Positions 8,690 to 33,658 of a stretch of DNA of 64,000 nt are shown here, piece after piece. The stretch covers positions 1 through 64,000 of the IMG/VR virus record IMGVR_UViG_3300032327_001202, one strand, 5' to 3'. Both the position numbers and the translations under genes were made by a program. The notes beneath the pieces were generated by a model, which saw nothing but the letters and a program-made list of their open reading frames with translations, did no database searches and had not been told where the DNA came from. The DNA is from a virus. Taxonomy: Duplodnaviria > Caudoviricetes. Position 1 is the stretch's first letter. The number at the start of each line of letters is the position of its first letter.

Positions 8690-9830
8690 TTTTAAATTGT
8701 TTTAAATTTCTTATTAATTTTTCAGTACAAGATTGTTTTAATACTAATTTTTCATCATAATTATTTTTAAACCATTCATCAGTTATAATTACATAATTAT
8801 AACTATTTTCTTTTGCCCATTTTTCCGCATAAATAATTTTTACTTTTACTTTATCATCATCTAAATTAGATTTAGGTTTTATTTCATAAAAAGTTTTTTG
8901 AGAATGATCAACAAAATCAATTATATAGTTTTTATATTCATTATTATAAACATATGGAATAACTAATTTTTCATATAATAAATCAGGATTAAATAATTGA
9001 AAATATGCTTCCCAACACGATCTTAACTTTAAATTTATAATTTTGTTATTTCTTATAAAAGATATATCACATCTTGATTTTGCCCAACTATTACTTATTG
9101 GTGGTACAAACAACCCATCTTTTATTTTTTTCTTCATAGAAATAGATTGTTTTTTATAAGATTTTTTACGAGTTTCTTCAGTCATTTTATGACTAGTATT
9201 ATTATCACCTTTTTGTATATTAGAAAAATACAAACTAGCACATTTTTTACTACAAAACGGATATATATCTTTTGTATTTCTTCTTGGTAATAAACCAATT
9301 GATTTTTTATTATTATTACATTCTTTTATTCCACATTTTTTATCCCAATGTGATGTTAAATAGTTTTTAACATTCTCTAAAGTAATTTTGGGTAATTCTA
9401 AAATATAATCGTTCTCAATTAAAATTTTATCTAATTTTAGATTTAATCTTTCTTCACCTTTCATATTTAATATCTGTCTTTTTATTAGAAAAGATGATAA
9501 AAAATCATATATTTTATCTTTTTCTTCGTTTGTCATATATTATATATTAATAATATCATCATCTTCTGATAAATCTTCTACTTTTTTCCATTCTCCAGTT
9601 TTTAATCTAACTTTGTGATTCCCTGTTATTTTTAACATAACACCATTTTCCATTTCTAACTCATACATCTGTTGATTTTTACTAAGATTTTTATATACAT
9701 ATTCTACTTCTTTATTTTCATATTCATTAGTTTCTTCATTTAAAGTAAGTACATATTCACCTTCTTTTATATCTTTAATCTTTTTATCTTCCCCTGTACT
9801 CATTTTAATATAACTATCAGGATGTAAACA
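8585..9830 (-). mobile_element. Canonically split intein in the helicase DExH motif with nested endonuclease gene
   Basis: IntN 9543-9830 (Cys1 TGT at 9828-9830); IntC 8585-8689 ends Ser-Asn; +1 residue is Cys. Splicing would restore DE-C-H. Confidence 0.88.
8655..9536 (-). CDS. Free-standing endonuclease (TnsA-N/gp4-like PD-(D/E)xK) nested between the split helicase halves
   Basis: LRSCWEAYF...YIIDF...FYEIKPK...WAKEN..YVIITD, plus an N-terminal Cys motif (CGIKEC...FCSKKC). Confidence 0.75.
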   Translation of the reverse strand: MTNEEKDKIYDFLSSFLIKRQILNMKGEERLNLKLDKILIENDYILELPKITLENVKNYLTSHWDKKCGIKECNNNKKSIGLLPRRNTKDIYPFCSKKCASLYFSNIQKGDNNTSHKMTEETRKKSYKKQSISMKKKIKDGLFVPPISNSWAKSRCDISFIRNNKIINLKLRSCWEAYFQLFNPDLLYEKLVIPYVYNNEYKNYIIDFVDHSQKTFYEIKPKSNLDDDKVKVKIIYAEKWAKENSYNYVIITDEWFKNNYDEKLVLKQSCTEKLIRNLKQFKNENKKNKKNRL

Positions 9831-10331
9831 TTCATCCACAATTAATAATCTAGAATCTCTATTCTCTAATAACTTAGGAGTATATAAAGAATGTATTAAA
9901 TACAAATGAAAATTAGTTAATGAAACTCTACCACCAATATATGCTTCTTTAGCAGAATCATACGGACAAAAATCACAAACAGTTTTATTTAACTTATTAA
10001 ACTCTTTACCTTGAGCACAAGAACAACTATAACTTGAACAATTATAATTATCTTTCCCTTTTAAGTTGGTAATTGATTCGTATTCTTCGTCATATTGATC
10101 TTGAAGAATTTTACCAGGTGTAATTATATCTACTTTTGAATCAGGACTTACTATATTTAAAAACCATTGACTTATCATAAGTGCTAAATGACTTTTACCT
10201 GTCCCTACAGGTAAGTTCATTAGATAAAATTTATTATCAGGTTTATTAGCATGAATTTTCTTAACAAATTCTAATGCTTCATCTTGTTCTTTTCTTGGTG
10301 TGTATCTATTTAAATCTTCTCTTAATCCCAT
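9540..10331 (-). CDS. DinG/YoaA/XPD-like helicase, N-terminal part, ending in a 96-aa N-intein
   Basis: Q motif (PRKEQ), Walker A (PVGTGKS), Cys cluster, Walker B LLIVDE|CLHPDSYI..., intein block B ITGNHKV; ORF ends DDDIINI. Confidence 0.9.
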   Translation of the reverse strand: MGLREDLNRYTPRKEQDEALEFVKKIHANKPDNKFYLMNLPVGTGKSHLALMISQWFLNIVSPDSKVDIITPGKILQDQYDEEYESITNLKGKDNYNCSSYSCSCAQGKEFNKLNKTVCDFCPYDSAKEAYIGGRVSLTNFHLYLIHSLYTPKLLENRDSRLLIVDECLHPDSYIKMSTGEDKKIKDIKEGEYVLTLNEETNEYENKEVEYVYKNLSKNQQMYELEMENGVMLKITGNHKVRLKTGEWKKVEDLSEDDDIINI

Positions 10332-13042: not shown

Positions 13043-13363
13043 ATGGCAAGACCTTACATTAACACATTAAATGCAACTTATTCTAATCCTACATTCTCTA
13101 TAAATTTACAATACTTTCACGTAAGAGGTGGCGGAACTTTTTCTATAGCTGGACTTTCAGCTGGTGTAGTTTCACCGTTTGCAGCTGGAACTACTAGTTA
13201 TTATAACGCAGGAACTACTTATTCTTTTAGATTAGGAACTTTAGCAACTGCTTCTATTGGAGGTGTACTTATACCAGGAAGTAGCCCAAGCAGATATATT
13301 TATACAGCAACTGTTAGCTATCCATTCCAAAATGGTGTTGAAGGTTTCACATTCTCTGCTTAA
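13043..13363 (+). CDS. Small Gly/Ser/Thr-rich hypothetical protein, possibly virion-associated
   Basis: 106-aa ORF with TTTAATATATA upstream; composition resembles the sheath insertion. Confidence 0.5.
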   Translation: MARPYINTLNATYSNPTFSINLQYFHVRGGGTFSIAGLSAGVVSPFAAGTTSYYNAGTTYSFRLGTLATASIGGVLIPGSSPSRYIYTATVSYPFQNGVEGFTFSA

Positions 13364-14499
13364 TTAGATAAAGGGAATTTTATTGTGGGAGAAGATTTAT
13401 AATCAATTATTTGAATATCTTCGTATTTAATGTCGTCAAAAGAATTATTATTAAGTATTAACTTAGGAAGCATATAAGTTTCCTGAGTTAATTGCTTTTT
13501 AACCCCTTCTACTTGATTTAAGTAAATATGACAATCTCCACCATTAAATATTAATTCATAAGGAATCATATTAGCTTCTTTGGCTAATAAATGTAATAAT
13601 ATACCATAAGAAGCTATATTATACGGAATTCCAAGAGGAAAATCACAACTACGTTGAAACCATTTTAGAGTTAAATATCTTTTTGGAATATTCAAATTAT
13701 CTAAATGTTCGTCAGTAATATCTTCTCCATAATACTTACTTTTACCCAAAGTATTTAACCAATATTGTAATCTTTGATCTTGTGTTAATTCAAATGTATA
13801 ACATTGAAACCCAAAATGACATGGGGGTAAAGTCATTTGATCTATTTCACCAACATTCCAAGCATTTACAATTAATCTACGAGAATCAGGATTTGTTTTA
13901 AGGTCATTAATCAAATTTTGTATTTGGTCAATTCCTTTAATATAAAATTCTTTCATCTCACCACCGACTCTATGTGAAGCTCCACCAAAAGATCCACCAT
14001 AATGGTACCCACCTACTTCACGTAGTTCTTTACGTCCACCCCAATCTCTCCATTGTTTTCCATATACAGGTCCTAATTCACCCCATTTTTTAACAAATTC
14101 TTCACCTCTTTCATTTTTTTCTTGCATTGATTTAACAAACCAATCTTTAGACATTGGTGCATAGTAATCGGGTTGAACGTCTAGTTCAGGAGGACAGGTA
14201 GGTGGGGTAAATTTTTTAAGGTAATTAGCATAGCAATCACCATCCCAAATATGGGTGTCATTATCTAATAAATATTTGACATTAGTATCGCCTTTTATGA
14301 ACCAAATAAGTTCATGGATTATTCCTTTTAAGAACATCTTTTTAGATGTTAAAAGAGGAAATCCTTCGGACATTTTGAATCTCATACTAAGATCAAAAAC
14401 TGATAGAGTTCCGGTGCCGGTTCTATCAGTTTTTTTAATACCATTGTCTAAAATATATTTAAGACATTCTATATATTGTTTATCTACGTTATTTTTCAT
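13360..14499 (-). CDS. thyA: Thymidylate synthase
   Basis: DRTGTGT, FPLLTSKK, ELIWF, LGPVYGKQWR, DSRR, LPPCH, QRSCD, PYNIASY, DCHIY, with several insertions. Confidence 0.97.
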   Translation of the reverse strand: MKNNVDKQYIECLKYILDNGIKKTDRTGTGTLSVFDLSMRFKMSEGFPLLTSKKMFLKGIIHELIWFIKGDTNVKYLLDNDTHIWDGDCYANYLKKFTPPTCPPELDVQPDYYAPMSKDWFVKSMQEKNERGEEFVKKWGELGPVYGKQWRDWGGRKELREVGGYHYGGSFGGASHRVGGEMKEFYIKGIDQIQNLINDLKTNPDSRRLIVNAWNVGEIDQMTLPPCHFGFQCYTFELTQDQRLQYWLNTLGKSKYYGEDITDEHLDNLNIPKRYLTLKWFQRSCDFPLGIPYNIASYGILLHLLAKEANMIPYELIFNGGDCHIYLNQVEGVKKQLTQETYMLPKLILNNNSFDDIKYEDIQIIDYKSSPTIKFPLSN

Positions 14500-22338: not shown

Positions 22339-22595
22339 TGCAAGAGACAGTAGATAAAATGGTAGATTACTTAAATGAAAATTTTTCAGAGGAGTTCTAC
22401 GTAGATTTTGAAGAAGATGAAAAAAATAAAGTAGTCTTTATTCAGTTTTTGATGGATAAAGTTATTAGCATTGATAATGCTATAGATTTTTTTAGCAGAA
22501 TCAATGATAGTAAAACTTTGTGTAAAAAACAAGAGTTTGAGTTATGGAAAACAAAGGAAGAAGAACCTATTATTCAAATAAGTTATATTATGTAA
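22338..22595 (+). CDS. Hypothetical protein
   Basis: 85-aa ORF coupled to the upstream stop codon. Confidence 0.55.
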   Translation: MQETVDKMVDYLNENFSEEFYVDFEEDEKNKVVFIQFLMDKVISIDNAIDFFSRINDSKTLCKKQEFELWKTKEEEPIIQISYIM

Positions 22596-23324: not shown

Positions 23325-23618
23325 ATGAAAAGTAAAAGTGATTTAAAGATAAAATATGGTGATAACATCATAGACGAAATAGAAAATAAATTAGCAAAAG
23401 AAATATCTGATAGTATAAACAAGGATATACTTAATAGTTTTAAGAAACCAAGTAAAATTTATCTACTTTCTTTAGTTGAAAATATTAATAATAAAGAAGG
23501 TGAGTTATTTATACTAATGGAAAAATATGGTATTATAGAAAATGATTTATATAGCCTTGAAATTGTTAAATCAAAAATAAGAGAATATAATATAGATTTA
23601 ATCTTAAAAAATAATTAA
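23325..23618 (+). CDS. Mini-protein of the RDxxIxxIL family carrying a major-capsid-like helix
   Basis: DLKIKYGDNIIDEIENKLAKEISDSINKDIL versus capsid DIKANTGMDIVQKMESILVNELSQTISKQII; ends KIREYNIDLILK. Confidence 0.7.
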   Translation: MKSKSDLKIKYGDNIIDEIENKLAKEISDSINKDILNSFKKPSKIYLLSLVENINNKEGELFILMEKYGIIENDLYSLEIVKSKIREYNIDLILKNN

Positions 23619-25116: not shown

Positions 25117-25293
25117 ATGAACAAAGATAAAATAGATTTATATAATTTTTTAGTAGATAACCCTTACTTTTCTAAGGAATATGTTATGGGAAAGATATTT
25201 AATTTTTCTTTTTCTGATATACAATATATCAATAATTTAGAACTAATGGAAAAAAGAAATAAAAAAATAGATGATTTATTAAATGAAGATTAG
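25117..25293 (+). CDS. 58-aa mini-protein carrying a portal C-terminal-like segment plus RNKKIDDLL
   Basis: Not in the ORF track. Manual translation: MNKDKIDLYNFLVDNPYFSKEYVMGKIFNFSFSDIQYINNLELMEKRNKKIDDLLNED*. Confidence 0.65.
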   Translation: MNKDKIDLYNFLVDNPYFSKEYVMGKIFNFSFSDIQYINNLELMEKRNKKIDDLLNED

Positions 25294-27790: not shown

Positions 27791-28288
27791 TTATTTAGTC
27801 CTCTTTTTTTTACCTCTTTTATTTATTGGAGGTGTATAATTTGTTGATGTGGATTGGGTAGATGGCGTAGTGTAAGCATAATCAAAATAAAATAAATTAG
27901 GGCTGGAACCTGTTTTATATAATTCATGTTCTTCTTCTTTAAATTCCTCAAATTCTTTGTTTTCTAAAATAGAATCTAATTTTCTATCACGATTAATGGT
28001 AGCAACTTCTCGTTTAATTCTTTCTTTTTCCTCCTCTGAATTACCAAAACCTTTCATAGGGTTAACAGTAACTAAATCTATCCCTATTGTTTGAGCGGCT
28101 ATTTTTTTAGCAATTGGTAATAAACTTGGAAAAGATTCATTTGACTGTGTCCCTACTAATGTAGTATCCATATTTATTTCATTTTTTAAATGAAGATTAG
28201 CATATTCGGTCATCCAGTTATTTACTACAGATTGTGTAGATGATACATGATTCAAATCCCATTTATCTATTTTTATATTTGGTTTCAT
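27791..28288 (-). CDS. Short paralog of the major capsid N-terminal region with an RDRKLDSIL motif
   Basis: NWMTEYANLHLKNE and SLLPIAKKIAAQTIGIDLVTVNP versus capsid SWMAEYAEYHAINE and NLLPVAMKIAAQTIGLDLVAVKP. Confidence 0.75.
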   Translation of the reverse strand: MKPNIKIDKWDLNHVSSTQSVVNNWMTEYANLHLKNEINMDTTLVGTQSNESFPSLLPIAKKIAAQTIGIDLVTVNPMKGFGNSEEEKERIKREVATINRDRKLDSILENKEFEEFKEEEHELYKTGSSPNLFYFDYAYTTPSTQSTSTNYTPPINKRGKKKRTK

Positions 28289-28291
28289 ATT

Positions 28292-29395
28292 TTATATTAT
28301 TTTTTCTTCTAAAATTATTTCTATATTTTGTTCATAAGAAATTTTTAATAATTCTTTTTTATTTTCCAAAACCCAATTATCTTTTAATTGGTCATTTCTT
28401 TTTACAACCTCAAATTGCTCTTCACCACCAAAAAATTCTCTTGGCTCATAATGTTGAATACCATTAAACTCTATAAATAACCCCTTTTTAGGTAAATAAA
28501 AATCAAATCTATATGTAGAATTACCTATTTTTTGTTTATATTCTTTAATGTATTCTATACCTTTTATATCTAACCAATTCTTTATTTGACGTTCTCCTTT
28601 TGATGAAGAACAATTAGGACAACCACATTTATGATGTATAATATAATTAGGTTTAGCACTCCAAATATAATCACATACTTTACATTTATGTTTTAAATAA
28701 AAAAGAGACCCTATATATTTTTCACCATCTACTAATTCTATATCATTTGGAAGAAGAGATAAATATTTTGTATGAGAAAATTTTCTACCAGAACAAGATG
28801 AACACCCTAATACTATATTAGCTATATTTTTAGGCGTAGTGTTAAATTTCTCACCACATTTTAAACATTCAAAATCATGATTTTCTCTAAAATTAGTGTA
28901 ATTTCCTATTAATTTTATATTCCTTTCTATTAATAATTCATTAAATTTATTAATATAGTTATATGATTTTTTGCTTAATAAATTTTTATCCTTTTTACAT
29001 TCACAAATATATTTTGTGATTTGTTTAGGTGTTTTATTTATTATTTCATTACATATTTTACATTCAAAATTTATATACGTATTAGTGTTAATATAATTAT
29101 CTACTCTAATAAAATCTAAATCTTTTATTCTTAAATCAAATTCTTCATTTGTTATTTTTCTACCTAATGAAGAAAAACTATCGTTTGTTTCTTTTTTACA
29201 TTCACATAATGTTCGATTATATAATTTAGGCTTTTTCATACTTTTTTTACCACATAACTTACATTCAAATTCTATTGGTGTTTCTGCATTAATATAATTA
29301 CCGATTCTTATATAATCAGAATCTTTAATTTTTAAATCAAAATCATTATTAGTAAATGCTTTTGGTCCTGACTTTTCGTTCTTTTTTATATACAT
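28292..29395 (-). CDS. Homing-endonuclease-like protein: Zn-ribbon repeats plus C-terminal Vsr-like PD-(D/E)xK domain
   Basis: Repeated F.CxxC units; SKGERQI...RFDFYLP...IEFNGIQHY...LLKISY. Confidence 0.75.
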   Translation of the reverse strand: MYIKKNEKSGPKAFTNNDFDLKIKDSDYIRIGNYINAETPIEFECKLCGKKSMKKPKLYNRTLCECKKETNDSFSSLGRKITNEEFDLRIKDLDFIRVDNYINTNTYINFECKICNEIINKTPKQITKYICECKKDKNLLSKKSYNYINKFNELLIERNIKLIGNYTNFRENHDFECLKCGEKFNTTPKNIANIVLGCSSCSGRKFSHTKYLSLLPNDIELVDGEKYIGSLFYLKHKCKVCDYIWSAKPNYIIHHKCGCPNCSSSKGERQIKNWLDIKGIEYIKEYKQKIGNSTYRFDFYLPKKGLFIEFNGIQHYEPREFFGGEEQFEVVKRNDQLKDNWVLENKKELLKISYEQNIEIILEEKII

Positions 29396-29494: not shown

Positions 29495-31237
29495 TTAGTT
29501 AAGGTAGCCATTAGCATCATTAACGTAGATAGTCATAAATTGTTTTTGTGGGAAGAAACCTAATTCAGCCACAGCATATCTTGATCTTAAAATCATTCTT
29601 GGAGCAAATGTTGCTTCTGACATGATTGAGATAGATTGTGCCATGAGGAATGGCACGAAACAGATACCTGGTTGATCAGGATTGTTTTTACGTCCGATTA
29701 AGATTCTGTTGTCATTGTATTTCATGTAAGGATCTACGTAGATAGTGATATCACCGATTTGACCTACAGGGTACATTTGACCGTTTGTGTTTAATTTAGA
29801 TTTAAGTGGGTTAATTGTGTAACCTGCAACATCCATTAAAGCTGCTGCTAATCCACCATTTGTTACCGCATATTGTGCTGGTCCAACACGTCCTTCAGTT
29901 GCGATGTAGTTAGAAGCATGTACCATTTTAGTGATAAGCTTTCTTTGTACAGCGTGTGTAGTTTCACCACCTGGTCCTGCTTGAACATAAAGAGTATCTA
30001 AGTCAAATATAGTTTGTCCAGAGATGTTAGCGTTAGCATTTAAACCTGTGTATAAAGGAGCAGTTTGTCTGTTTATATTACCCATATCAAATACTTTAGC
30101 AATAATTTGCTTAGAGATAGTTTGAGAAAGTTCGTTTACAAGGATTGATTCCATTTTTTGAACGATATCCATACCAGTGTTAGCTTTGATATCTTCAATT
30201 TCTGTTCTACGTAATGCAGAACTTACTTCTACTGTACCAACTGTAATTGATTTAGAAGAAATTTTTGGTCCAATTGCACCTGCATATGTGCTTTCTTCTT
30301 CTTGACGAGCCATTGGGTATTGCCCACCATTACCATTAAAGTTTGTAACATATCCTGGTAATTGATCTTCAAGAGCAGATACTAAGCTTATGCTTATAGC
30401 ATTTGAGTTAGTAGACTGTCCAAATAAGTAGTTAATTTCTGAAACCATTGAACCACCTGCTGTAGCACCTGTAGTTGAAACGTTAAATGAGTTGTTTGCT
30501 TGATTTAAGCCATAAACAACACCACCACCATATGCACCACCTGCCGCATTTGATTCTTTGTAAGCTCTGAATATAGGCTGTCCATCAATACGAGAGAAAC
30601 CTAAGAACTCTAAGTAACCAAATTTGTTAGTTGGTTCAGTTGTAGTACTAGATACTGAAGTTGATGCAGTGAAACCTGTCCAAATTCTTGTACCAAATGC
30701 TAAACCACCTTGGTTTTGTTGAATACCTGCAGTAGTTAAAGCGCTATTAATAGCTGTATTTAATGAAGCACTTAAACCTGTAGAAGTTAAAGTAGCATTC
30801 CAAGCAATTTTGAATACTTGAGGTTTTGTGTTAAAGTTTGAAAGATTTAAATCGTCATATTGAAAATCAACATAAACTAAATCAATCTTTGGACCTGGAG
30901 TTGGCTTTACAGCTACTAAATCAAGACCAATTGTTTGTGCAGCAATTTTCATAGCTACTGGTAATAGGTTTTGTCCTAAATCACCTGAACCTATGTTTGA
31001 TGAACCATAGTTTGCACCAATTGTTGTACCTGGGTAAGTACCAACTTGTGGAGCTAAAACAGCACCTAAACCACCTGTAGAAGCATTAAGGTAAGCGTTT
31101 TCGTTTATTGCATGGTATTCAGCATATTCTGCCATCCATGAATATTTTTCTCTGTCCTCTTTGTTAACACCAATGTTTTCTAAAATTGGAGTCCATTTGT
31201 TAAGAGCTTTTTGTAAGTCAATTCTAACTTGTGACAT
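29495..31237 (-). CDS. Major capsid protein, T4 gp23-like
   Basis: KWTPIL, AAQTIGLDLVAVKP, ELSQTISKQII, YVDPY, PFL, PRMILRSRYA; strong codon bias; 580 aa with an internal insertion. Confidence 0.9.
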   Translation of the reverse strand: MSQVRIDLQKALNKWTPILENIGVNKEDREKYSWMAEYAEYHAINENAYLNASTGGLGAVLAPQVGTYPGTTIGANYGSSNIGSGDLGQNLLPVAMKIAAQTIGLDLVAVKPTPGPKIDLVYVDFQYDDLNLSNFNTKPQVFKIAWNATLTSTGLSASLNTAINSALTTAGIQQNQGGLAFGTRIWTGFTASTSVSSTTTEPTNKFGYLEFLGFSRIDGQPIFRAYKESNAAGGAYGGGVVYGLNQANNSFNVSTTGATAGGSMVSEINYLFGQSTNSNAISISLVSALEDQLPGYVTNFNGNGGQYPMARQEEESTYAGAIGPKISSKSITVGTVEVSSALRRTEIEDIKANTGMDIVQKMESILVNELSQTISKQIIAKVFDMGNINRQTAPLYTGLNANANISGQTIFDLDTLYVQAGPGGETTHAVQRKLITKMVHASNYIATEGRVGPAQYAVTNGGLAAALMDVAGYTINPLKSKLNTNGQMYPVGQIGDITIYVDPYMKYNDNRILIGRKNNPDQPGICFVPFLMAQSISIMSEATFAPRMILRSRYAVAELGFFPQKQFMTIYVNDANGYLN

Positions 31238-31272: not shown

Positions 31273-31317
31273 TGCTAAAAGTCTCTTTTTGCTATTTTTA
31301 TAGATTTGTTTGTTTTT

Positions 31318-33522
31318 TTAAATGTTTTTGAATCTTTCTAAGATTGATTTGAAATCTGAATCAGATAGTTTATCTTCTTGTATTAAACTGTCATGAGAAA
31401 TCATTTTTTTAGTTGATTCATTCTTTTTTAAGTTTCTAGTTAACCAAAAATGTTCAATTTTAGCTTCTGAATCCAATTCAGGATATAGTTTAGCTTGTGA
31501 AAGAATTGATTTTTTAGAACTTTCATTTGTTACTTCCCAAATTGATTTTATATTTTCTGGCATCAATCTGATTAGTCTTTCTTCTAATGATTCATTTTTA
31601 ATAGAAAGTGCTTCTTGTATTAATTTTATAACTTCTGAACTTGTGAAATAACTCTTTTCGTTTATGTAAAGTTTTACTTGTTCTTGCTCTTCGTTTGTTA
31701 AGCTATAATAGCTATCAACTTGAGACTTGTTTAAAAATTTTAAGAAATGTAGATCGTTTGTTTCAGAAACTTTACGTTTTCTAGCTTCTTCGATTAATAA
31801 ATCTATTTTTTTACTTAAATCTGAATCTGTATTTTTATTTTCTAAGTAGTCTTCGTCTGCTTTAGATACATCTGGTAAACCTTCTAATTTTACTTCTTTA
31901 CCTAATAATTCATCTTTGAAATCTGCTTCATTTGGAACCGCAGTATCAACTTTTTGTTCTTCTGGTAATTCAACTTCTGTTAATTCAGTATAATCTAAAG
32001 AAACTGGAGTTGCTTCATCAGCTTCACCCGCTTTTTCAACACCATCTTCACCATGAAGTTCATCCTCACCACCTTCTAAATAGTTATCTGATTTATTATC
32101 AACATCATTTTCACCAAAACCATATTCTTCTAAAGTAGGAATAAGATTTGATTCATTACTTTCAAATAATTTAGTACCATTAACTTTTTCAGAAATTAAA
32201 CCTGTATAAGATACAGCTTTATCTAAGTTTTCAGCAATGTATTGAGAATAAGAAATGTTATCATCAAGGTGTTCTGCTATATATTCAGAATATTTAATAT
32301 TACCTTCTAAGTTTTCAGCGATATACTCAGAATAAGCAATATTACCATCTAAGTTTTCAGCTAAATATTCAGCATAAGAAATATTTCTATCTAAGTTTTC
32401 AGCTAAGTATTCTGCATAAGAAATATTCTTATCAACATTCTCAGCAATATATTCAGAATAAGAAATGTTTTTGTCTAAATTTTCAGCGATGTATTCAGAG
32501 TAAGAAATGTTTCTATCTAAATTTTCAGCGATGTATTCAGAATAAGAAATGTTCTTATCTAAGTTTTCAGCAATATATTCTGCATAAGCGATATTTTTAT
32601 CTAAGTTTTCAGCAACATATTCAGAATATTTAATTGATTTGTTTAAGTTTTCAACTAAATAATCGTTATGTTCGATTAATCTATCAGTTGTATCTTTAAG
32701 AGATTTGTTCTCAGAAACAACAACTTGAATTTTTTCTGCTAAATAATCTAAGTATTTAACAACTTGAGAATTAGTTTTATTTAATTCTTCATAGTAGTTT
32801 AAAAGTTTTTCTAATTTAACTGGTTCTAAATTACCAGATTTAAGAGCACTTTTAACTTCTTTTTTAGTTGCAGCAATTTCATTAACTATATATTTCGAAT
32901 AGTCTGACAATTGATCTTTCGTTACGAATTCATTTTTGTTCATGTTAAATAATTCATTTATTTTTGATTCATTTGATACTTCATATATTCTGAAGTTAGC
33001 ATCATTTGAATAATTTAAAGACTCATTTATAGAAGACATTCTCGCAGAAGCAAATCCCGGATCTGCAACTATATCATAAGTAAATAATTTTTTTAGTGAT
33101 ACTGTACCATCAGCTTCTGTAATACCAGCAGCTCTTGAAGATACAAATATAGGGCAACCATCATCAACTAAAGCCTTAGCTTCTTTTCCCCAATAGGTAT
33201 TTAATAATTTAATTTGTCCTTCAACTACATTTTTTTCTTTAACATAATATGCGGTTTTGATTAAATGGGATGCACGGGATAGTGAAGTGTCAAAGACGTC
33301 GGGGTGGTCAAACTCACCATAAACTACTCCCATAGTAGAAATCCTGCTATTAAGTTCTTCTAAACAAGGCAAGAATCTTTCAGGAGTATATACTCTTTCA
33401 TTCCTATTTTTAACCATAAACTCAGTAAAAGTACCTCCTAAAAGATAATCTTTTCTAGCATCTACACCTTCGTTCATTTTTAAAGGATTTGTATTATTTT
33501 CAATGATTAATACTGGCTTCAT
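31318..33522 (-). CDS. Prohead protease (T4 gp21-like) fused to a scaffold/core-like coiled-coil region
   Basis: KNRNERVY, YGEFDHP, FVSSRAAG, TYDIVADPGFASA, followed by 14-aa repeats and an acidic region. Confidence 0.88.
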   Translation of the reverse strand: MKPVLIIENNTNPLKMNEGVDARKDYLLGGTFTEFMVKNRNERVYTPERFLPCLEELNSRISTMGVVYGEFDHPDVFDTSLSRASHLIKTAYYVKEKNVVEGQIKLLNTYWGKEAKALVDDGCPIFVSSRAAGITEADGTVSLKKLFTYDIVADPGFASARMSSINESLNYSNDANFRIYEVSNESKINELFNMNKNEFVTKDQLSDYSKYIVNEIAATKKEVKSALKSGNLEPVKLEKLLNYYEELNKTNSQVVKYLDYLAEKIQVVVSENKSLKDTTDRLIEHNDYLVENLNKSIKYSEYVAENLDKNIAYAEYIAENLDKNISYSEYIAENLDRNISYSEYIAENLDKNISYSEYIAENVDKNISYAEYLAENLDRNISYAEYLAENLDGNIAYSEYIAENLEGNIKYSEYIAEHLDDNISYSQYIAENLDKAVSYTGLISEKVNGTKLFESNESNLIPTLEEYGFGENDVDNKSDNYLEGGEDELHGEDGVEKAGEADEATPVSLDYTELTEVELPEEQKVDTAVPNEADFKDELLGKEVKLEGLPDVSKADEDYLENKNTDSDLSKKIDLLIEEARKRKVSETNDLHFLKFLNKSQVDSYYSLTNEEQEQVKLYINEKSYFTSSEVIKLIQEALSIKNESLEERLIRLMPENIKSIWEVTNESSKKSILSQAKLYPELDSEAKIEHFWLTRNLKKNESTKKMISHDSLIQEDKLSDSDFKSILERFKNI
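32194..32655 (-). repeat. About 11 tandem in-frame 42-nt repeats (14-aa unit AENLDKNISYSEYI)
   Basis: Read directly from the protein and the DNA; degenerate at synonymous positions. Confidence 0.9.
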
Positions 33523-33658
33523 TAATTTTTAAGTTATTTTGTAGTATTATATATAAAAAAATAATACCTCCTTTTTTCTAAAAAAATCAATTATTTTTAT
33601 GACCTGGATTTTTTATAGAAAAACTTAAAACTTAAAATTTTTTTAATATATATTATCT

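Follow-up and report, generated by a model that had tools for sequence, protein, structure and literature searches.

A small phage protein, ORF165, as a partial paralog of the major capsid protein N-terminus with an inserted helical module

The window, i.e. the whole stretch of 64,000 nucleotides analysed here (positions 1 to 64,000 of IMG/VR virus record IMGVR_UViG_3300032327_001202), was drawn from an 82.8-kb virus-record fragment with an estimated completeness of 15%, and its G+C content is about 24%. The GenBank records nearest to the window phage are uncultured phages of 634-642 kb with a capsid protein identity of 61%; the Lak phages are at a greater distance from it than these. The capsid gene, a homing endonuclease gene and ORF165 follow each other on one strand, with ORF165 as the most downstream of the three (Table 1). 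The stop codon of the endonuclease gene and the start codon of ORF165 are 3 nt apart and, in the window lineage, ORF165 is found within the head gene cluster, coupled to the endonuclease gene past the capsid terminator. The exact ORF165 protein is also encoded on a 332-kb contig on record. The sequence TCTATAAAAA(ATCC) is present on the minus strand at 31295-31304 and 33610-33619, 5' of the capsid and protease-scaffold genes; TCTATAAAAA is kept 5' of the capsid genes in many related loci and may be a late promoter box. A box resembling it also precedes the ORF165 paralog at other loci. A shared late promoter was not supported by counts of the bare TCTATAAAAA pattern, which is without enrichment in the window (6 occurrences versus 5.1 expected).

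Table 1 Features of the ORF165 locus and segments of the ORF165 protein, with positions in the window.
Feature	Position	Strand	Basis and remarks
ORF165	27791..28288	-	165 aa, whole CDS with stop codon; partial paralog of the major capsid protein N-terminus
ORF165 aa 1-38, copy of capsid propeptide (Delta) helices	28175..28288	-	Family alignment; AF2 helix 18-38 ~ capsid helix 29-50
ORF165 aa 53-77, FPSLLPIAKKIAAQTIGIDLVTVNP, copy of the most conserved capsid block	28058..28132	-	Capsid aa 88-112; 64 nt with 76.6% DNA identity to the capsid gene
ORF165 aa 80-128, charged helical insert without capsid counterpart	27905..28051	-	Most conserved part of the family; AF2 helix; module in relatives
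ORF165 aa 100-108, RDRKLDSIL, instance of the motif R-[DENQ]-x-x-[IL]-[DN]-x-[IL]-L	27965..27991	-	Motif scan, hhalign, insert profile
ORF165 aa 131-139, NLFYFDYAY, copy of capsid beta-strand DLVYVDFQY	27872..27898	-	Capsid aa 119-127; strand 117-127 of the capsid model
ORF165 aa 140-165, Ser/Thr-rich with STQS, then basic tail KRGKKKRTK	27794..27871	-	Sequence
HNH-type homing endonuclease gene	28292..29395	-	phrog_559, E 2e-56; between the capsid gene and ORF165
Intrinsic terminator-like stem-loop	29448..29476	-	Directly 3' of the capsid gene
Major capsid protein gene, T4 gp23 type, 580 aa	29495..31237	-	Pfam Gp23 (PF07068) E 3.3e-27; PDB T4 gp23 E 4.8e-18
Capsid aa 1-127, part copied in ORF165	30857..31237	-	BLASTP, family alignment, capsid profile
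Prohead protease fused to 14-residue-repeat scaffold region	31318..33522	-	Upstream of the capsid gene

A sequence-only reading of this DNA had described ORF165 as a paralog of the capsid N-terminus lying 3' of the capsid gene, from which an endonuclease gene separates it, with three capsid blocks in order and a charged, motif-bearing helix placed inside the capsid-homologous sequence. This description was borne out. In BLASTP, residues 25-80 of ORF165 aligned to residues 34-115 of the capsid protein (E = 2e-10), and a profile of 40 capsid proteins, searched against the 637 six-frame ORFs of the window, recovered ORF165 with E = 2.8e-11 in three collinear segments (profile positions 30-44, 80-116 and 120-138). 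Once relatives were added, the ORF165 alignment covered the whole capsid N-terminus. The family alignment contains a start block KKW-P-ILE-MG, a helix W-M-x-E-Y-A-E-x-H-x-x-N-E, an invariant block LLP-A-K-AAQTIG-DLV-V-P and a strand L-x-Y-x-D-F-x-Y. The first of the three blocks (IDKW) is degenerate in the window copy but clear family-wide, where KKWAPILESMG stands against KKWSPVLENMG of the capsid protein with i-E values down to 1e-13; the degeneration in the window lineage affects the first 16 residues, and NWMTEYANLHLKNE is kept. The third block, NLFYFDYAY versus DLVYVDFQY, is weak alone in the window copy but significant in the relatives L014 and L016 (i-E 5e-4 to 7e-4), with a clean alignment family-wide. 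Compared to the capsid protein, the paralog is without a glycine-rich loop of about 28 residues and stops a few residues past the strand. Where the capsid protein has residues 112-115, between N-arm block and strand, the paralog is longer by about 45-48 residues. Searches of Pfam and PHROGs with ORF165 gave no match, Gp23 included.

The homology is limited to the first ~127 residues of the capsid protein and stops at the equivalent of gp23 residue ~131. Mapping of the capsid profile onto T4 gp23 placed the conserved block at residues ~96-119 and the strand at ~122-131, and the profile of the ORF165 family itself gave a weak but collinear match to T4 gp23 (residues 2-119, E = 1). With its 165 aa, ORF165 is not a complete HK97 fold, which comprises P and A domains in about 450-600 residues. 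In T4 gp23, cleavage removes residues 1-65; the stretch 66-105 has no ordered structure in the prohead and presumably faces the scaffold core, the head-length mutations A66D, A94V and G97S map to this region, and the linker of the I-domain begins at residue 132 (PMC9546572). Since the paralog ends where this linker starts, ORF165 is a copy of exactly the N-terminal module in front of the I-domain. At the level of sequence, the paralogy of ORF165 and the capsid N-terminus is solid.

ORF165 belongs to a large and undescribed family that is absent from the Pfam and PHROGs descriptions. A word-indexed search retrieved 39 homologs of 105-168 aa with 41-100% identity, an exhaustive HMMER search at least 187 cluster representatives, and a metagenome scan 338 stretches encoding the family; scanning viral contigs with P0012, which with P0005 and P0011 makes up the nearest relatives, gave no match. 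The 150 representatives among the HMMER matches listed were all 66-236 aa long and included no full-length capsid protein, so they are not full-length penton-forming proteins of the gp24 type. At the 35 loci with informative flanks, the paralog is located in one conserved block with no adjacent endonuclease. The usual order in this block is a 320-aa and a 96-aa protein, the paralog, sometimes an 84-aa protein, a T5orf172/MUG113 protein, a 90-aa and a 105-aa protein and an SbcC-like gene, and in LR745206 and LR756502, the two complete genomes in which both were located, about 90 kb separate the block from the capsid gene. When the usual neighbours of the paralog were searched against Pfam and PHROGs, no match was obtained except for the T5orf172/MUG113 domain two genes downstream; a small protein with this domain (GIY-YIG-like; L001 6674-7003) is encoded one or two genes 3' of the paralog at at least 30 loci. 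The usual synteny block was not found on the 82.8-kb record (~15% complete), and the window phage may have a second ORF165 copy. By tblastn, the family was undetected in huge phages that share the capsid type but are more distant (LR756504, LR756501 and Lak) and is therefore regarded as accessory.

Two further observations concern the paralog at other loci. A conserved palindrome with a TATA-like loop and a T-run (e.g. CTTTTCTATAAAAAGAAAAG TTTTTTT) is present 15-25 nt before the paralog start codon in L013 (about 9960-10000), L035, L036, L050, L059 and more than 20 others, and could be a terminator of the upstream gene, a stem-loop promoter or both. The most divergent paralog, in the 640-kb complete genome L019 (9802-10276), consists of two overlapping ORFs of 71 and 102 aa, which cover different parts of the capsid N-terminus and may be a frameshifted or rearranged copy.

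The arrangement in the window, with ORF165 directly beside an endonuclease gene and near the capsid gene, would also fit another origin that the sequence-only reading had raised, namely that a piece of the capsid gene was duplicated at the insertion of the homing endonuclease and is now decaying as a non-functional scar. The degenerate first 16 residues in the window lineage would agree with it. We consider the probability of this origin to be negligible. The paralog is not confined to the surroundings of an endonuclease, as the 35 loci with the other synteny have none adjacent to it; conversely, among 80 capsid loci inspected up to 5 kb downstream, the paralog was found 3' of the capsid gene in the window lineage only, and 79 of the 80 are without it. 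The order capsid-endonuclease-ORF165 occurs only in the window, L008 and L009/L113. Endonuclease-like ORFs follow the capsid gene directly, without the paralog, in L093, L123, L139 and L154; with such ORFs in at least four lineages besides that of the window, the site is a recurrent insertion point. In a tree of 105 shared columns, the window paralog grouped among the paralogs and the window capsid protein among the capsid proteins. The approximately unbiased (AU) test rejected a clade joining the paralogs and capsid proteins of the window lineage (p = 0.0007) and did not reject a single capsid clade (p = 0.46); a duplication that was both recent and local is thereby rejected.

Nucleotide comparisons gave the same picture. 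The best DNA match between ORF165 and the capsid gene extends over only 64 nt with 76.6% identity. Recent gene conversion with the capsid gene was rejected as well, as codons are shared at just 8 of the 17 identical residues of the best block. Between the window and L008/L009, the dS of the endonuclease gene is 0.02-0.04, several-fold under the 0.13-0.24 of ORF165 and the flanking genes; over all neighbours, the range is 0.08-0.24. From this lower dS it follows that the endonuclease spread after the genomes had diverged, with the paralog already in place, and it indicates a recent sweep. Judged by these divergence values and by the synteny, the neighbouring endonuclease is an unrelated recent insertion in the window lineage. 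An endonuclease-linked duplication is thus ruled out by distribution, AU test, DNA identity and dS, and the sequence comparisons identify ORF165 as an old partial duplication of a gp23-type capsid gene rather than an endonuclease scar.

Relaxed selection, the other property expected of such a scar, was not found either: the ORF is intact at 48 loci and subject to purifying selection, with a median dN/dS of 0.25 over 40 pairs. In the window lineage, the dN/dS of ORF165 is higher (0.37-0.52 versus 0.02-0.1 for its neighbours). Of the 16 differences between ORF165 and its L008 counterpart, half are in residues 1-16, where the sequence has moved away from the family consensus, and the remaining ones are scattered over the core and the C-terminal tail. 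The near-invariant family residues P58, T67, Y134, D136 and Y139 correspond to the invariant or near-invariant capsid residues P93, T102, Y122, D124 and Y127, and N99, R100 and K103 of the insert are as conserved as these capsid-derived residues; N99, R100, R102 and E115 of the insert are invariant in A1. Such a substitution pattern argues that ORF165 is a real, selectively maintained small protein. The capsid gene, too, has a dN about ten-fold above that of its neighbours among close relatives (dN/dS 0.37-0.39 versus 0.02-0.1), and the length of its product varies (580 versus 598-602 aa). As the first ~140 residues of the capsid protein differ at few positions, the fast changes must lie further along. 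Coevolution of ORF165 with the fast-evolving capsid gene in the window lineage was not supported for the same reason, the capsid N-termini (~140 residues) of the window and L008/L009 differing at few positions.

The charged insert carries a motif that recurs in other small proteins of the window. The pattern R-[DENQ]-x-x-[IL]-[DN]-x-[IL]-L has nine instances in the 75 genes of the window versus 0.07 expected from shuffles, an enrichment that is partly circular because the motif was defined after its instances had been seen. In ORF165, RDRKLDSIL lies 57 residues from the C-terminus, whereas in the mini-protein family of the window the motif lies 3-4 residues from it, after a tail domain of about 30 aa. 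Searching the 637 window ORFs with an insert profile, we obtained as best non-self match a 58-aa ORF at 25117, which was marginal (E = 0.044), and in third place an 89-aa ORF at 22544 (E = 0.46); both align to the profile at their C-terminal motif. An hhalign comparison of the insert with the window tail motif matched the same columns, 15-25 only, and was marginal as well (P = 0.008 and 0.036). The related loci gave stronger matches: the ~45-aa module is common to other capsid and scaffold fragments in L016 and L030, with E values from 1.8e-12 to 1.4e-3. In L016, a 107-aa ORF has the module (E = 3.4e-10) after a stretch copied from capsid residues 338-383 (E = 2e-6), and in a 111-aa ORF the module (E = 1.8e-12) is followed by a stretch, IEYSEYIVEQL, that resembles the scaffold repeat by eye. 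In a 261-aa ORF of L030, the module precedes a stretch copied from capsid residues 392-516 (E = 3e-7). A 97-aa ORF at 23325 of the window has a spine-helix piece in common with an L016 ORF (E = 7e-4; capsid profile E = 0.0018) and ends in the window tail motif rather than in the module. The link of the insert to the motif family, as proposed by the sequence-only reading, is therefore supported in part: by sequence comparison across the relatives, where the module sits on other capsid and scaffold fragments, and only weakly within the window. ORF165 is thus the member that has this element inside the protein and not at its end.

Several of these loci deserve a closer description. The 122-kb contig L016 has, at 9628-9951, 9968-10297, 13112-13447 and 13710-14240, three ORFs with an NRDxKIDSIL module, which carry capsid spine-helix, capsid N-arm and scaffold-repeat-like pieces, and a fourth ORF that ends in YMRDKKINDILKD. 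L030 (1078-1860) and L028 (1279-2052), which belong to one 176-kb genome that also includes L017, encode ORFs of 258-261 aa that are partial copies of the capsid C-terminus (profile E = 9e-8 and 2e-7), one of them with the module near its N-terminus. A 75-aa ORF at L001 7302-7529, three genes 3' of the paralog, ends in VRDEKIDQILS, i.e. in the window tail motif. The metagenomic protein P0174 (236 aa) is composed, in this order, of a piece resembling capsid 497-518, a module, a piece resembling protease 145-160 and a TIPIGNIS piece, followed by an N-arm piece, a second module and a strand. Either neighbouring mini-genes have naturally fused in P0174, or the gene call has read through. The TIPIGNIS piece of P0174 resembles the 84-aa neighbour of the paralog. 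An origin of the insert from the 14-residue repeat of the scaffold was not supported, as the BLAST match of P0174 was weak (E = 0.24) and the insert profile missed the protease-scaffold protein even at E = 50.

The structure of ORF165 was predicted with AF2 from a 118-sequence alignment, with a mean pLDDT of 73.5 and a pTM of 0.38. The model contains a helix at residues 18-38, a low-confidence helix at 57-67 and a helix at 85-109 with pLDDT above 95, into which RDRKLDSIL falls; the strand is unpaired. In the capsid model, the matching helices are at 29-50 and 91-99, and the strand is at 117-127. Taken together, the low pTM, the capsid-matching helices and the unpaired strand make ORF165, in this model, look like an extended, partner-dependent element that has no compact fold alone. 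A Foldseek search of the model against the PDB gave no match, and a search of the ESM Atlas with ORF165 returned just unnamed viral clusters and low-feature matches to portal fragments, which we judged to be noise.

With regard to processing, the motif H-x-x-N-E is kept in 37 of the 73 family members having the propeptide helix, and a capsid-like hydrophobic P3 is found in just seven of those 37; a capsid-like putative cleavage site (I-N-E/N) is accordingly present in 7 of the 73. Short T-[QE]-S sequences recur in the family, near the C-terminus in 39 of 184 members versus 2 expected; 21 members have an MTQS N-terminus and 29 of 184 a basic tail. The window ORF165 has STQS at residues 17-20, GTQS at 46-49 and STQS at 143-146.

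We tentatively propose a role for ORF165 in head assembly, in which it would mimic the capsid N-terminus, and regard this as a real possibility, if somewhat less than probable. ORF165 has kept the two propeptide helices, the invariant N-arm block and the first beta-strand, and has gained an amphipathic, highly charged helical module of ~45 residues at the turn between N-arm and strand, with loss of the glycine-rich loop. It would bind the partners of the capsid N-terminus in the assembling head; in T4, these are neighbouring subunits and the scaffolding core. As a handle, the inserted helix would connect ORF165 with other mini-proteins that bear the module or with a common partner, and ORF165 could in this manner tune or join the assembly of a very large head. 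We favour this proposal because the copied region has that role in T4 and constraint falls on the same residues in ORF165 and in the capsid protein, and because most of the module-bearing fragments examined derive from head proteins and ORF165 itself, in the window lineage, is in the head cluster. Against it, the capsid-like cleavage motif is mostly lost, and the paralog is usually located outside the head cluster, among unannotated genes by the SbcC-like gene. Moreover, the family is accessory and ORF165 evolves faster than its neighbours, which also fits an arms-race gene.

These last two properties count in favour of the main rival to the assembly mimic, a decoy for host sensors. ORF165 would then show the least mutable capsid motif, the equivalent of Gol, so that host sensors of short capsid motifs bind it without firing, and a partner would be recruited or blocked through the handle. 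Known sensors of this kind are CapRel and, with EF-Tu, Lit. No other part of the capsid protein is as conserved as the copied block, the equivalent of T4 gp23 ~96-119, which belongs to the Gol region on the coordinates that we assume for the latter on gp23. This places the block inside the gp23 region that activates Lit via EF-Tu (PMC3014915). Lit and CapRel detect capsid proteins by short motifs, and many receptors sense the core phage proteome (PMC13581612). In addition, relatives hold sets of several core-protein fragments on one handle. On the other hand, an extra Gol peptide in T4 activates Lit and does not block it, no defence system of the host of this phage is known to sense the Gol-equivalent motif, and ORF165 is without a padloc or anti-defence annotation. 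Furthermore, the propeptide helices and the beta-strand, which a decoy for a motif would not need, are retained. We consider the decoy unlikely.

Two other functions have to be weighed against the assembly mimic. A truncated copy of a multimer interface is a classic form of dominant negative, and ORF165 could accordingly be a weapon between phages, a fragment that caps or misdirects the capsid protein or the scaffold of co-infecting relatives and that its producer tolerates. The family is indeed clade-restricted and fairly fast-evolving. The copied residues are, however, invariant in the capsid protein of the producer itself, so that self-poisoning would be expected, and no covariation suggestive of self-tolerance was seen; the aligned capsid N-termini of the window and L008/L009 differ at few positions. 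Such a weapon is in our view improbable. The other function starts from EF-Tu, which in T4 is bound by about 100 residues from the first quarter of gp23, a property proposed for T4-type phages generally (PMC3014915). Like this first quarter, to which the region spanned by ORF165 is homologous, ORF165 might be directed at EF-Tu or a chaperone and modulate the translation or folding of the abundant capsid protein. As this is pure analogy and would leave both the conserved insert and the other proteins with such fragments unexplained, we regard it as very improbable.

The assembly mimic and the decoy could both be extended to the whole clade. ORF165 would then be the most widespread member of a huge-phage system in which each mini-protein shows, on a shared helical handle, the best-conserved motif of one of the core virion proteins, so far the capsid N-arm, spine helix and C-terminal strand, the protease and the scaffold repeat. 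Jointly, they would either serve as decoys, making host pattern-recognition receptors blind to the core phage proteome, or form a hub, joined by the handles, for the nucleation of giant heads. This extension seems to us rather doubtful at present.

Among known systems, ORF165 resembles T4 gp24 in being a paralog of the capsid gene and, in the window lineage, in its position just 3' of this gene, with the homing endonuclease gene between. Whereas gp24 has the HK97 fold in full length and forms the pentons, ORF165 comprises the first ~127 capsid residues plus the insert, without an A or P domain, and the paralog is usually about 90 kb away from the capsid gene. To our knowledge, known capsid paralogs are full-length vertex proteins, and scaffold-side N-termini are either within the capsid protein or separate, unrelated scaffolds. 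ORF165, as a free-standing, conserved copy of the capsid N-terminal module only, with a shared handle spliced in, differs from both. ORF165 keeps, together with the N-arm, helices homologous to two N-terminal regions on the scaffold side that the prohead protease removes, namely the propeptide of T4 gp23 (65 residues) and the Delta domain of HK97 gp5 (PMC9546572). These two regions are part of the capsid protein, whereas ORF165 is encoded by a separate gene with an insert and has mostly lost the cleavage motif. The LLPIAKKIAAQTIGIDLVTVNP block of ORF165 is homologous to the gp23 stretch that holds the Gol peptide, the activator of the Lit protease through EF-Tu (PMC3014915), and both are the most conserved segment of the capsid protein. 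The likeness is positional, as Gol sits in the capsid protein itself and the ORF165 block in a separate gene. In T4, the region copied here makes contact with the scaffold, affects the length of the head and is what the Lit defence senses. If its assembly role holds true, ORF165 would be a lead on the very large heads of phages with genomes of ~0.6 Mb; if the decoy holds true, it would represent a new anti-defence principle against the sensing of conserved capsid motifs.

Two more distant systems are similar in their logic. The capsid targeting sequence of T4 internal proteins is an N-terminal tag for loading into the prohead that is cut at L/I-x-E. ORF165 would match it, by logic alone, as a scaffold-binding element that brings a passenger, with a 'tag' of ~60-130 capsid residues; the T4 internal proteins have a basic tail, as do some members of the ORF165 family. 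MicroProteins are small copies of one interaction domain that regulate a larger protein by competition, and ORF165, which has no fold of its own, likewise reproduces in a small protein an interaction region, here that of a multimeric protein. MicroProteins were described in eukaryotic transcription factor families, whereas the target of ORF165 would be the shell protein of a virus, approached with a shared extra handle.
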